Positions 21,115-27,693 of a stretch of DNA of 40,118 nucleotides are shown here, piece by piece. Position 1 is the stretch's first letter, and every line of letters begins with the position of its first letter. Where the stretch lies: contig SCUN01000192.1 in assembly GCA_004297655.1 (NCBI GenBank), forward strand, positions 1-40,118, given 5' to 3'. The notes below the pieces were generated by a model. That model was not told the DNA's origin. It ran no database searches and saw nothing but the letters and a program-made list of their open reading frames with translations. The translations under genes and the position numbers were made by a program. The stretch is from Acidobacteriota bacterium (lineage in GTDB: Bacteria; Acidobacteriota; Vicinamibacteria; Vicinamibacterales; SCN-69-37).

Positions 21115-22197
21115 ATGAAGATCGGGAAGATCACACTTGAACATCCGGTTGCGCTCGCGCCAATGGCGGGCATGACAGACACCGCGTTTCGCCGGCTGGT
21201 GAAGCGCCGGGGCGGGTGTGGGCTGGTCGTCACCGAGATGGTGAGCTCTGAAGGACTCGTGCGCGGCATCGATCGCACGCTCGAGTACGCCGAGTACACC
21301 GAGGAAGAACGGCCCGTGTCGATTCAGATTTTCGGCGGCGATCCCATCAAGATGGCGGACGCCGCGCAGATCGTCGAAGGCATGGGCGCCGACATCGTCG
21401 ACATCAACATGGGATGCCCGGTGCCGAAGATCGCGAAACACAATGCCGGCTGCAGCCTGATGCGCGAGCCGTCGCATGCCGCTGACGTCGTTCGCGCGAT
21501 GGCGAAGGCCGTGCGGATTCCGGTGACGGTGAAGATGCGCGCCGGCTGGAACGAGCGCGAAGTCAATGCGCCGCTGCTCGCCAGGATGGTGGAGGACGCG
21601 GGCGCCGCGGCGATCGCGGTGCACGGCCGCACGGCGGCGCAGTCGTACTCGGGAGAATCGGATTGGAGCCTGATCTCGCGCGTGGCGGGCGGCGTCTCGA
21701 TTCCCGTGTTTGGCTCGGGTGACTGTGTCGAGCCGGACCAGATCGTCGACCGGCTTGGGCATCACAACGTGGGCGGCGTGCTGGTCGGGCGCGGCGCGCT
21801 CAGAAACCCGTGGATCTTCCGGCAGGCCGCGGATCTGGCGGCTGGACGAACGGCGGAAGCCGTCACGCTCGAAGAACGCGGCCGGTTCCTCCTCGACTAT
21901 CTCGACCTGCTTCTTAATGAACGCGTCAACGAGGCGGACGGCTTCAGGCACGCCGCGCCGGGATTCACAGGAAGCCAGGAGCCGGCAAAAGGCCGGGCCA
22001 AGTGGGTCATCAATAAGCTCCGGGCGCTGAACTCCTGGTACACGAAGGGCCTTGTCGGCGGCTCGCACCTGCGAGTCGCAATCAACAGTTGCGAGACGAT
22101 CGATAATCTAAGACTGACGATCACTGACTTTTTTGGCATCCAGCCAAAAACAGTCGGCGTCGACGATCATCGTCCTGTCGCAGTTCTCCCAGAATAG
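21115..22197 (+). CDS. dusB: tRNA-dihydrouridine synthase (DusB family)
   Basis: LAPMAGMTD, TEMVS, QIFG, DINMGCP, VTVKMRAGW, VHGRT, GRGALRNPWIF. Confidence 0.93.
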   Translation: MKIGKITLEHPVALAPMAGMTDTAFRRLVKRRGGCGLVVTEMVSSEGLVRGIDRTLEYAEYTEEERPVSIQIFGGDPIKMADAAQIVEGMGADIVDINMGCPVPKIAKHNAGCSLMREPSHAADVVRAMAKAVRIPVTVKMRAGWNEREVNAPLLARMVEDAGAAAIAVHGRTAAQSYSGESDWSLISRVAGGVSIPVFGSGDCVEPDQIVDRLGHHNVGGVLVGRGALRNPWIFRQAADLAAGRTAEAVTLEERGRFLLDYLDLLLNERVNEADGFRHAAPGFTGSQEPAKGRAKWVINKLRALNSWYTKGLVGGSHLRVAINSCETIDNLRLTITDFFGIQPKTVGVDDHRPVAVLPE

Positions 22198-22461
22198 CTG
22201 CCCAAGTCGCTGGTGCAGTGGGTGCTCGAGGTAGGACTTGAGCCCGCCAAGGTCGTCAAATTCAACGACACTGACGTAGGAATAGGTCTGATCACCAACC
22301 TTGGCCTCATAGCCGGCGCCGATCAGTTGCCGGCGGCCGACCATGGACCTGGCGACCGAAGGGATCTGCCTGAACGCCACTTTCATTGCATCCAGGAACG
22401 CCTCACGATCCGCGTCAGTGGTGGTCGCCTTGGGTTCGAACAAGACGACGTGCGCGATCAT
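22108..22461 (-). CDS. Dabb (stress-responsive alpha/beta barrel) protein
   Basis: MIAHVVLF ... IPSV ... VVEFDD ... YLEHPLH; coupled to upstream gene by ATGA overlap. Confidence 0.85.
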   Translation of the reverse strand: MIAHVVLFEPKATTTDADREAFLDAMKVAFRQIPSVARSMVGRRQLIGAGYEAKVGDQTYSYVSVVEFDDLGGLKSYLEHPLHQRLGQLFWENCDRTMIVDADCFWLDAKKVSDRQS

Positions 22462-25373: not shown

Positions 25374-26198
25374 ATGCAGACCACTCCGCTTGCCGCTGCC
25401 CAGTACGACCGCGTCGTCGCCACTCTGCCGTTTGTGGAGTCGCTGGCGCGACGGATGGCCTCGACGATGCCGCACTCGATCGACCTCGGCGATCTCGTGC
25501 AGGACGGCGTGCTCGGTCTGATCGACGCCGCGAATCGCTTCGATGAAGCGCGCGGGATCAAGTTTGAGACGTTCGCGGAGCGCCGCGTACGCGGCGCGAT
25601 GATCGACGCGCTGCGTCGCGATGCCTGGCCGCGGGGCGTGCGCCGGGTGCGTCGCGAACTCGAAGCGGCGCGCGAACAACTGCGGCGCGAACTGGGCGGC
25701 GAGCCAACGATGGCCGATCTGGCGAAGCGCGTCGGCGTCGAGGAAAGCCGGCTCGAGCGCACGATCGTGCGGATCAACACCATTGAGTCGACGTCGGCGA
25801 TGGCCAACGCCGAGACCATCGACCAGTCCACGCTGCCGGCGGTGCTCGTGCCGAGCGAGCCGCCGTCGCCGCATCAGTCCTACGTGCAGACGGAGCTTCG
25901 CGAGCGCATGCGCGCCGCCATGCGCGCGTTGCCGTCGCGCGAACGCCGCATCATCGCGATGTACTACTTCGAGGAAGCGACGATGAAGCAGATCGGCGAC
26001 GAGATCGGCGTGAACGAGTCGCGCGTCTCGCAGCTGCATGCGCGGGCGATCACCCGATTGCGGAAGGCGGTCGGCGTTGGCGCCGACGCGTTCTTCGAGC
26101 CGTCGCGGACGGCGGCGGCCTCCGCGGCCCGGAAAGACAAACCGGCGAAGTCTAGCCGACTGTCTCTCGTGCGACGCGAACGAGATCGCGCAGCCTAA
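25374..26198 (+). CDS. FliA/WhiG-family (sigma28-type) RNA polymerase sigma factor
   Basis: DLVQDGVLGLIDAANRFD, GIKFETFAERRVRGAMIDALR, WPRGVR, YYFEEATMKQIG, VNESRVSQLHARA; real start ATG 25374. Confidence 0.93.
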   Translation: MQTTPLAAAQYDRVVATLPFVESLARRMASTMPHSIDLGDLVQDGVLGLIDAANRFDEARGIKFETFAERRVRGAMIDALRRDAWPRGVRRVRRELEAAREQLRRELGGEPTMADLAKRVGVEESRLERTIVRINTIESTSAMANAETIDQSTLPAVLVPSEPPSPHQSYVQTELRERMRAAMRALPSRERRIIAMYYFEEATMKQIGDEIGVNESRVSQLHARAITRLRKAVGVGADAFFEPSRTAAASAARKDKPAKSSRLSLVRRERDRAA

Positions 26199-27693
26199 AG
26201 GGCTTCGCGAGCCAGCGGCATCCGCTCTCCTCGAGGAATCGCTCGGCTTCCGTGCCGGCGACGTCGCCGGTGACGAAGACCATTCGCTTCGACAACGCCG
26301 GCCGCGTCACCGCGAGCCGGCGATAGAGCGACGGGCCGTCGAGTTTCGGCATCTTCAAATCACAGACCACCAGGTCATAAGACTGGCGATCGATCAGCGC
26401 GAGCGCGTCTTCGCCGTTGGTCGCGCGATCGACGACAAACCCGGCGTCGCCGAGCGCATCGGCCACGGCGGTACCCAGTGCCGCCTCGTCTTCCACCACG
26501 AGCGCGCGGGTGCCTTTGGGCACTTCCGGCGCCGGCCGCGCCGGGATCGGCGCGCTCATCCGCAGACTGTTGCCGCCGACCGGCAGTTCGAGCGTGAACG
26601 CCGCGCCGCGGCCGCCGGCGCTGCCGGGAATGGACGCGACGCTCAGGGTGCCGCCGTGTTCCTGGGCGATCGCGTAGGCCACGGTCAGGCCGAGGCCGGT
26701 GCCTTTGCCGACTTCCTTCGTCGTGAAGAACGGGTCGAAGATCTTCGCCTGCACATCCGCCGGAATCCCGGGGCCATCGTCGCTCACTTCGAGCTTGACG
26801 CAGTCGTGCTCGGGCTCGTGCCACGAGCGGAGGATCAGCGTGCCTCGGCCGTGCGCGCCGATCATGGCCTGTTCGGCGTTGATGATGAGGTTGAGCAGCA
26901 CCTGTTGGATCTGATGCGGGTCCGCGAACACCTGAGGCAACCCTGACGCCAGCGCTTCGAGGATGACGACATTGGCGACGCGCTGCTCGTAGGCGCGCAG
27001 CGCGAGCGTGTCGCGGACGACGTGATTGAGGTCCACCATCGTGCGCGTGGTGTGGCGCTTGCGCGCGAACGTCTGGAGATTGCGCACGATGCGCGCGGCA
27101 CGTTCGGCCGCGTTGTGGATGGCGTCGAGGTCGCGCCGCGTGGTCTCGTCGAGCGGCTTGCCGGTCAGGCGTTCGGCGCAGGCCAGCACGGTCGCCAGCG
27201 GGTTGTTGAGTTCGTGCGCGACGCCGCTCATGGTCTGTCCCAGCGCCGCAAGTTTCTCCGCCTGCAGGAGCTGGTGGTACAGATCGCGCGCCTGGTCCTC
27301 GAGCTTCTTGCGTTCGGTGACGTCGCGCATGACGGCTTCGATGCGCAGCGTGCCGTCACGCGGCATCGTGTCGGCGCGGGCGGTGACCTCGACCCACATC
27401 GCCGAGCCGTCGGCGCGGCGGAGACGCAACAGGTAGTCCTGCGTCGAGCCGTCGCGCGCCAATTGCTGAAGGAAGGAGGCTCGCGCCTGGGTATCGACGA
27501 AGCGGGCGGGCTCGAACGGCCGCACATCGCCGGCGGGGACGTCGTCGGCCCACCCGAACATGAGGCGGAGGTGCGGATTGGCGGCGAGCGTGGCGGTGGA
27601 TTCGGCCGTTGCGCCCACGAGGCCGATGAACACGCCCTCGTGGACGGCTTGGAACAGGCGCGCGAACGCGTCGCTTGAAAGGGACGCGGGCAC
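26152..27693 (-). CDS. PAS hybrid histidine kinase (PAS-HisKA-HATPase-REC)
   Basis: [15 protein letters not shown]...[68 protein letters not shown] before GTG. Confidence 0.95.

Follow-up and report, generated by a model that had tools for sequence, protein, structure and literature searches.

The 40,118-nucleotide contig SCUN01000192.1 of an Acidobacteriota bacterium (order Vicinamibacterales; GenBank assembly GCA_004297655.1), referred to in full length as the window, carries a compact cassette of five regulatory genes. These encode a hybrid histidine kinase, a sigma-54 activator of the bacterial enhancer-binding protein (bEBP) type, a small helix-turn-helix (HTH) protein, a micro-protein that resembles only the dimerisation and histidine phosphotransfer (DHp) part of a kinase, and a sigma factor of the FliA/WhiG family. 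Our preferred reading, to which we assign a probability of roughly one half, is that phosphate passes from the kinase to the activator by way of the bare-DHp micro-protein, that the activator then switches on the sigma gene from a sigma-54 promoter, and that the new sigma factor drives a sigma-28-type loop with the HTH protein as its output. By gene content and distribution the cassette is a self-contained regulatory unit specific to the order Vicinamibacterales, whose members are among the commonest uncultured bacteria of soil.

The window is contig C280 of a metagenome-assembled genome (2.79 Mb, 362 contigs, 82% complete), and its genes were called by listing open reading frames (ORFs) and scanning them for Pfam and NCBIfam families. 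Conservation was followed in 100 related loci, made up of 20 mapped neighbourhoods and 80 further loci, while the sigma factor was surveyed in 41 genomes, including the window's own, from its genus, its family and 16 further families of the order. All five core genes were found in 91 of the 100 loci, and 88 loci share a standard arrangement in which the activator gene is divergent from the HTH gene, the HTH, micro-protein and sigma genes are co-directional, and the kinase gene is convergent (Table 1). Median identities across the loci are highest for the sigma factor and the HTH protein (both 74%), followed by the activator (69%), the kinase (68%) and the micro-protein (61%). Because gene order and cis-elements recur in about 90 of the 100 loci, the association is more than chance. 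The original prediction, made from the DNA of the window alone, had proposed that these genes work together, and they are indeed co-conserved as a single cassette across the order. All the elements that it named were located where it had placed them. In one genome (G025) the cassette is split by an insertion.

Table 1. Genes and cis-elements of the cassette, followed by neighbouring genes on the activator strand (positions in the window).
Feature	Position	Strand	Remarks
Soluble PAS hybrid histidine kinase	26152..27693	-	Weak PAS_9, then HisKA, HATPase_c and C-terminal Response_reg (Pfam)
REC-AAA+-HTH_8 sigma-54 activator (bEBP)	23310..24734	-	Response_reg, Sigma54_activat, AAA_lid_14 and HTH_8 (Pfam)
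Sigma-28-type promoter before the HTH and micro-protein genes	24744..24772	+	CTACAG-N15-GCCGATAG
Small HTH_17/excisionase-family DNA-binding protein	24784..25056	+	HTH_17 32.5 bits (cut-off 27); TIGR01764 35.6 bits (cut-off 28.8)
DHp-only micro-protein, 63 aa	24977..25168	+	Starts at a TTG preceded by the ribosome-binding site GGAGAGG
Two GTCA-N6-TGAC dyads, 30 bp apart	25156-25169 and 25186-25199	+	Candidate activator sites (upstream activating sequences)
Sigma-54 promoter (-24/-12) of the sigma gene	25346..25360	+	TGGCAC-N5-TTGC; sole exact match in the window
Divergent FliA/WhiG-family sigma factor	25374..26198	+	TIGR02479 195.9 bits (cut-off 189.6)
Dabb (stress-responsive alpha/beta barrel) protein	22108..22461	-	Pfam Dabb 60.1 bits; last gene of the activator strand
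Protein with conserved N-terminal domain and RKPFGE-type repeats	22458..23294	-	Matches no Pfam or NCBIfam family

Both signalling proteins at the top of the cascade are readily recognised. The HisKA, HATPase_c and receiver domains of the kinase scored 51.0, 84.0 and 71.0 bits, which is the make-up of a hybrid kinase, and its translation shows the H, N, G1, F and G2 boxes as well as the receiver Asp; no histidine-containing phosphotransfer (Hpt) domain was present among the domain matches of the protein. The kinase was found in every one of the 100 loci, and its DHp segment is 68-99% identical to that of the window across 39 related loci. The activator has the composition of an NtrC-class bEBP (receiver 88.8, AAA+ 242.8 and HTH 43.5 bits), with GAFTGA, Walker A and Walker B motifs in its translation, and was matched in 99 loci, a few of these matches being cross-hits to the kinase receiver in truncated loci. 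Its true start may be the ATG at 24710, since similarity in relatives begins at residues 1-17. RpoN is encoded in the same genome (contig C265). The PAS hybrid kinase with its HisKA, HATPase and receiver domains, and the REC-AAA+ activator with an intact GAFTGA, had both been named in the original prediction, and the Pfam searches and the translations bear these assignments out. The convergent 3' ends of the sigma and kinase genes overlap by 47 nt (26152-26198), and a terminator-like hairpin lies close to them on the minus strand (26161-26140).

The sigma gene stands directly behind a sigma-54 promoter, as had been predicted. The promoter ends 13 nt before the ATG at 25374, which is taken as the start codon because the N-terminus is conserved among orthologues. 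In 21 of 21 loci a relaxed form of the motif precedes the sigma ATG, and the stricter TGGCAY-N5-TTGC is found in 84 of the 88 distinct intergenic regions between the micro-protein and sigma genes. Two palindromic boxes had also been predicted here; they are confirmed as a pair of GTCA-N6-TGAC dyads, an exact sequence that occurs three times in the window against 0.56 sites expected by chance. The dyad is present in 66 of the 88 intergenic regions, with two copies 29-32 bp apart in 20 of the 66. Its distance upstream from the -24 element is about 148 bp, falling within 145-150 bp in 46 of the 66. Such a placement is the layout expected for an enhancer-binding protein, with the activator as the candidate binder. 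A repeat search with 6-nt seeds overlooked the dyads, the arms of which are 4 nt long. The third exact dyad (4190-4203), at the 3' end of a 613-aa ORF (2361-4202), probably arose by chance, as it has no sigma-54 motif close by. A direct repeat, TTCGC-N5-TTTCG (25321-25335), also lies just upstream of the -24 element; TTCG-spaced repeats like it are seen in many relatives (L027-L033, L039 and L041), not in all, and may be a site for another regulator or for a DNA-bending protein.

The distance from this promoter to the start codon varies within the order. The motif lies at -28 from the ATG in the window and in its nearest relative (L027), and 53-75 nt before the ATG in most of the relatives inspected, where it is followed by a hairpin and GGAGG; in two others it is found at -36 (L046) and -121 (L045). 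Most relatives carry a leader of about 45 nt before the sigma ATG, comprising the hairpin and GGAGG, which is missing in the window and in L027. By the usual spacing from -12 to +1 the sigma transcript of the window would start about 2 nt before the ATG, and the mRNAs of both the sigma factor and the HTH protein would be nearly leaderless in this genus.

A second conserved promoter, this one of the sigma-28 type, sits between the activator and HTH genes and ends 11 nt before the HTH ATG. The consensus of sigma-28 promoters is TAAA-N15-GCCGATAA, and the motif shared by the cassettes, CTAMAG-N16-CCGATAR, matches it. Every locus listed has this motif upstream of its HTH orthologue, at 10 to 126 nt from the ATG, and 77 distinct in-register sites were obtained. 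The cassette sigma factor is its likely reader, because it is the sole FliA-family sigma found in genomes free of flagellar markers. No terminator-like site was seen between the micro-protein and sigma genes, and read-through into the sigma gene is therefore possible. Since the HTH and micro-protein genes stand behind the conserved sigma-28-type promoter, the cascade would loop back on itself, and we infer that the micro-protein is a product of the cascade that closes a feedback loop, and not only an upstream step of the relay.

The sigma factor had been placed in the FliA/WhiG type by the original prediction, and it passes the model of that family (Table 1). Of its regions, Sigma70_r2 and r4 pass and r3 is weak (20.9 bits against a cut-off of 25.3), and the protein falls below both the FliA model NF005413 (179.3 against 201) and the WhiG model NF004935 (169.8 against 343). 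Orthologues of 63-88% identity were found in 39 of the 41 genomes, counting the window's own, from about 35 genera. FlhA and flagellin were each over cut-off in 19 of the 41; neither was over cut-off in 21, and 20 of these carry the cassette sigma, which amounts to 20 of the 39 carriers. Eight of the 20 are at least 95% complete (G001, G007, G013, G020, G030, G031, G033 and G035), while G009 may be a false negative for flagella, because it is only 55% complete and holds hints of flagellar genes. Flagellar and chemotaxis genes had been reported missing from the window, and in the whole of its genome, at 82% completeness, no Flagellin_N, FHIPEP, Flg_bb_rod, FliP, FlgM, MCPsignal or CheW was found; flhF and flhG were not searched by name.

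Flagellated relatives encode a canonical FliA of their own. In 16 genomes a second sigma, about 40% identical to that of the cassette, is encoded 1.1-2.1 kb downstream of flhA; six of these flhA-linked sigmas were tested, and each exceeds the cut-off of the FliA model NF005413, with 219-249 bits. FlgM is confined to genomes with flagellar markers, plus a weak, below-cut-off match in the 55%-complete G009. None of the 20 mapped neighbourhoods has the cassette beside flagellar genes. On these scores and this distribution, the cassette sigma is a divergent FliA/WhiG paralogue that is kept with or without flagella, and not the flagellar sigma, which agrees with the earlier view of it as an orphan sigma-28.

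Targets of this sigma factor outside the cassette were sought in several ways. A position-weight matrix built from the 77 sites and run over the whole genome placed the cassette promoter at the top (25.0); the runner-up (19.4) lies within a terminator-like hairpin on contig C239, and the reversed-sequence control reached 21.2. Relaxed motifs in 1800 crude upstream regions, derived from a crude gene list that omitted the HTH gene itself, showed no excess at the right spacing. With the strict pattern, five relatives without flagellar markers gave five matches, four of them at the cassette (in four near-complete genomes), and five flagellated relatives also gave five, one at the cassette and four elsewhere, with similar numbers in the controls. 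None of the matches in the flagellated relatives lies within 10 kb of mapped flagellar genes. Because the flagellar promoters of flagellated relatives were missed, and the controls gave similar numbers, the strict pattern is unusable as a detector of the regulon. The genome scan for sigma-28 promoters that had been proposed as a check yielded no further sigma-28-type promoter besides the one in the cassette, whether by matrix, relaxed or strict patterns, and no evidence emerged for the surface motility or differentiation programme that the original prediction had put forward, as no target promoters were found outside the cassette in this genome and ten relatives.

It could be argued from this that the cassette is a leftover of a sigma-54-to-sigma-28 flagellar hierarchy that outlived the flagella and has no programme of its own. 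A kinase, a REC-AAA+ activator, a sigma-54 promoter and a FliA-family sigma do mirror what is found in flagellar hierarchies, and around half of the relatives are flagellated, so that the lack of outside targets would fit. We nevertheless regard such a relic as very improbable, given the level of sigma identity kept across some 35 genera with or without flagellar markers, with the promoters intact, the canonical FliA and FlgM that flagellated carriers have inside their flagellar cluster, and the position of the cassette away from flagellar genes in every mapped neighbourhood.

The micro-protein had been described as a DHp-only protein, and several lines of evidence agree with that description. 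It has no Pfam or NCBIfam match above cut-off. The 88 micro-proteins that could be aligned share the motif F-H-x-L-N-N-Q-L-G, in which His10, L12, N13, N14, L16 and G17 are invariant (88 of 88); the residue after the histidine (H+1) is variable and never acidic (Q, R, K, A, S, G, L or T), and the Asn at H+4 is among the invariant positions. The commonest weak Pfam match is HisKA (25 of the 88, best E 0.0012), its score of 14 bits lying below the gathering cut-off of 26.9 (PF00512). When the family profile was aligned with the DHp segment of the cassette kinase (helix 1 and loop) using hhalign, the result was 94.9% (E 4.8e-8), with His10 placed on the phospho-acceptor His. The Hpt family (PF01627) matched none of the 88 at E values up to 10, and no likeness to FlgM was present among the family matches. 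Against the sequences of solved structures the profile found nothing significant, with one histidine kinase at E 2.2. The AlphaFold2 (AF2) model is a helical hairpin (helices 3-29 and 33-61) with a predicted local distance difference test score (pLDDT) of 94.4. An RsiG-like cyclic di-GMP motif was also considered for the micro-protein, and was dropped on reading the sequence against that motif.

Small proteins of this kind form a large family, with at least 8000 small-protein clusters; the named ones among the matches listed are all but one 'hypothetical protein', and the small relatives among 120 listed are 64-82 aa long. For 90 longer relatives, no Pfam domain of the HATPase_c or receiver kind is listed. 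The profile was also run over 401 genomes of the phylum. Strong matches (E <=6e-22) came from the window genome and, within the same order, from 30 of the 36 genomes sampled; two genomes of the same class gave none, and eight of the 362 other genomes of the phylum gave weak ones. In the ESM Atlas, a cluster of 64-aa proteins, 92% of them with Pfam HisKA, is commonest in Gemmatimonadota, and stand-alone DHp micro-proteins may thus be present in a second phylum. In one genome of the survey (G038), a 454-aa ORF that appears transposase-like by eye takes the place of the micro-protein between the HTH and sigma genes (L137, 6195-7559, minus strand).

Structure prediction also docks the micro-protein on a receiver domain. 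Modelled as a complex with the activator receiver, a pair of micro-proteins scored 0.74 (best control 0.00); 58 of 80 solved complexes attain that mark, as do 2 of 110 mismatched pairs. The runs share at least 96% of contacts, and the partner has a pLDDT of at least 87. The modelled interface brings His10 and helix 1 against alpha-1 of the receiver and its beta3-alpha3, beta4-alpha4 and beta5-alpha5 loops, which surround the acceptor Asp. A DHp-like micro-protein that is modelled as docking on the activator receiver is therefore supported.

According to the preferred reading, a cytoplasmic cue sensed at the PAS domain would cause the kinase to phosphorylate the activator receiver, and the phosphate would travel either directly or from the receiver Asp of the kinase to the micro-protein His and on to the activator Asp. 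The activator would then assemble on the GTCA-N6-TGAC dyads and open the sigma-54 promoter of the sigma gene. The new sigma factor would read the CTAMAG-N16-CCGATAR promoter, leading to production of the HTH protein and the micro-protein, and read-through past the micro-protein gene may yield more sigma as well. In this scheme the micro-protein would be a dimeric four-helix-bundle DHp without a catalytic domain, shuttling phosphoryl groups between receivers, with its invariant His placed at the phospho-acceptor pocket of the receiver. Feedback would be positive should the micro-protein supply the activator with phosphate, and negative should it draw phosphate away. The HTH protein, sometimes tethered to the micro-protein, would be the likely DNA-binding output. 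A bolder version, in which the micro-protein represents a third structural class of bacterial histidine phosphotransferase and the cassette is a bistable commitment switch that drives a non-flagellar programme through the tethered HTH protein, is conceivable and in our view rather doubtful.

Several observations weigh against this sequence of events. The activator could receive its phosphate straight from the kinase, in which case no part in a relay would be left to the micro-protein, and three conventional Hpt domains are encoded elsewhere in the genome. The micro-protein is made downstream of the step that it would feed, an arrangement that fits a feedback inhibitor equally well, and one genome (G038) keeps the sigma factor, kinase, activator and HTH protein and has lost the micro-protein. 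A Foldseek search of the micro-protein model against the PDB gave no match at E <=0.001; its DHp matches were not significant, and the top rows mix DHp domains (GacS, ERS1 and ZraS) with unrelated hairpins. Because DHp-receiver complexes have already been solved, the pass of the docking model indicates likeness and is not proof of binding. No further sigma-28-type promoter was found in the window genome or the ten relatives, although the strict pattern is a poor detector of a regulon. Finally, an 80-aa relative of the micro-protein, itself an undescribed small protein, is present in another acidobacterial family, in all three genomes sampled (hhalign 96.1%, E 2.9e-9, His aligned), with the H-box-like sequence M-H-K-L-R-N-I-L-G. 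Its gene overlaps the start of canonical fliA near methyl-accepting chemotaxis protein and CheR genes in one locus (L133, 6007-6252, minus strand), lies upstream of fliL, beside fliL and fliP, in the second (L134, 6054-6296, minus strand), and falls between flgE and fliL in the third (L135, 5894-6250, plus strand). No kinase or activator of the cassette type is nearby in these flagellar clusters, which points less to a tie with this kinase than to one with the sigma factor or with the flagellar hierarchy. These relatives also suggest that the cassette descends from a flagellar regulatory module.

Such a tie could mean that the sigma factor has the micro-protein, by itself or together with the HTH protein, as an anti-sigma or other binding partner, which would be a novel type of sigma-28 regulator, the His motif being a relic or a phospho-switch. 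The sigma gene always has the micro-protein gene as its immediate upstream neighbour in the same orientation, the flagellar relatives of the micro-protein keep similar company (overlapping the fliA start in L133, or between flgE and fliL in L134 and L135), and no FlgM was found in carriers without flagellar markers, save for the weak match in G009. Known anti-sigma-28 genes are, moreover, sigma-28-dependent (PMC5655016), as the micro-protein gene appears to be. We consider this explanation improbable, since the invariant H-x-L-N-N, the homology to the kinase H-box and the canonical mode of receiver docking in the model all point to phosphoryl chemistry, and the micro-protein bears no likeness to FlgM.

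Negative feedback is a more serious alternative, if still an unlikely one. Here the kinase would phosphorylate the activator directly, the kinase receiver would serve as a sink, and the late-made micro-protein would act as a phosphatase-like or competing DHp, shutting the cascade off by docking on the receiver of the activator or on the DHp of the kinase, in parallel with FlgM, which is itself sigma-28-dependent. The position of the micro-protein gene behind a sigma-28-type promoter suits this view, and the docking model fits it equally. In HisKA proteins a non-acidic H+1 with Asn at H+4 fits phosphatase or transfer chemistry and not that of an autokinase, which is the pattern seen in the micro-proteins. 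Helix 1 of the micro-protein is closely like helix 1 of the kinase, and could therefore compete for the same receiver. There is also structural precedent for inhibition of one DHp by another in RetS-GacS, which was among the Foldseek rows, and the non-flagellated Legionella oakridgensis keeps FliA together with FlgM, a sigma-28-dependent negative regulator (PMC5655016). A pure competitor, however, would need no invariant His, and hybrid kinases are described as generally passing phosphate through a His carrier (PMC9981736).

The HTH protein is closely bound up with the micro-protein. The tail of its gene overlaps the micro-protein start in another frame, as it does in 27 of the 91 loci, and in five of the 91 the two are fused in frame. 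Similarly, 38 of the 90 longer database matches of the micro-protein are in-frame fusions of HTH, linker and micro-protein. In the AF2 model of one natural fusion the two domains stand apart, connected by a disordered linker and without confident packing (predicted template modelling score 0.38). The first 55 or so residues of the HTH protein are conserved, and it was found in 92 of the 100 loci. It had been called BldC-like, which holds for the fold class (HTH_17) and not for the family, as the BldC model NF033787 gave only 24.8 bits against a cut-off of 77. The protein therefore resembles the small MerR-like HTH proteins of the BldC and excisionase type in fold class, and passes TIGR01764, but differs from BldC in failing the family model and in its pairing with a DHp hairpin, to which a disordered linker sometimes joins it in one chain.

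The cassette can be compared with several known systems. Flagellar hierarchies such as FlgS/FlgR, FleS/FleR and FlrB/FlrC comprise a kinase, a REC-AAA+ activator and RpoN, with a FliA-family sigma factor at the bottom. The cassette shares with them the kinase, the REC-AAA+ activator, the sigma-54 promoter, the FliA-family sigma and the consensus of the sigma-28-type promoter. It is unlike them in that the kinase is a hybrid without an Hpt domain, the sigma-54 promoter stands directly on the sigma gene, the sigma factor fails the FliA model, and no conserved sigma-28-type promoter was found other than that of the cassette. The micro-protein can likewise be set beside small inhibitors of kinases. 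Sda of Bacillus is a small helical-hairpin kinase inhibitor. In size and fold the micro-protein is similar to Sda and to the DHp heteromer of RetS-GacS (PDB 7n0e), being a hairpin able to bind a DHp or a receiver; unlike these inhibitors, which need no conserved H-box, it has an invariant His and NN.

Sigma-28 family members that serve purposes other than flagella have been described in Streptomyces, where WhiG acts with RsiG and cyclic di-GMP (PMC12871210), in L. oakridgensis, which retains FliA/FlgM though non-flagellated (PMC5655016), and in Chlamydia (PMC10597470). As would be the case in the cassette, a FliA/WhiG sigma is kept there and used without flagella, and feeds back through a gene that it transcribes. 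What sets the cassette apart is that sigma-54, together with a hybrid kinase and a DHp micro-protein, is in control, and that its sigma factor fails the WhiG model by a wide margin; unlike in Legionella, no FlgM was found in cassette carriers without flagella. If the loop operates as proposed, a flagella-type sigma has been kept under sigma-54 control for a non-flagellar purpose, within a circuit that is either self-reinforcing or self-limiting.

Carriers of phosphorelays are described as falling into two classes, Hpt proteins and pseudo-kinases (PMC9981736). The latter include Spo0B and ChpT, dimeric DHp-type histidine phosphotransferases of the 'pseudo-HK' class (PMC9981736; PMC3433190). The micro-protein resembles these in its DHp-like hairpin with a candidate acceptor His, in the canonical receiver docking that is predicted for it, and in having a hybrid kinase as partner. 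It differs in comprising only 63 aa with no remnant of a catalytic domain, in standing behind a probable promoter of the very sigma that its relay would switch on, and in being sometimes fused to an HTH protein. It is thus a candidate for the smallest possible phosphorelay carrier, and possibly for a new class of carrier. If so, the switch would operate in one of the most abundant bacterial orders of soil, and because all of its parts are small and soluble, the proposed steps are directly testable in vitro. Nothing turned up in literature searches on the cassette, on a sigma-28 from Acidobacteria or Vicinamibacter, or on DHp proteins that stand alone; one of these blanks is weak, since papers on ChpT and CHPT1 crowded its ranking.

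The genes around the cassette are conserved to varying degrees. An Rfam search of positions 22000-27800 matched no RNA family. On the activator strand, 15 nt downstream of the activator gene, lies the gene for the RKPFGE-repeat protein, which is present in 82 of the 100 loci; its product of 278 aa has a conserved N-terminal domain of about 100 aa, followed by about 20 basic RKPFGE-like repeats, and matched only acidobacterial hypothetical proteins in the Atlas. The Dabb gene is present in 61 of the 100 loci, many of which stop short of it. On the other side of the cassette, a PCYCGC-motif protein (PF13798, 98.9 bits) is encoded at 27701-28618 on the minus strand, directly upstream of the hybrid kinase gene. 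It is kept beside the kinase in 73 of the 100 loci, may be co-transcribed with it, and is a candidate input partner of the kinase.

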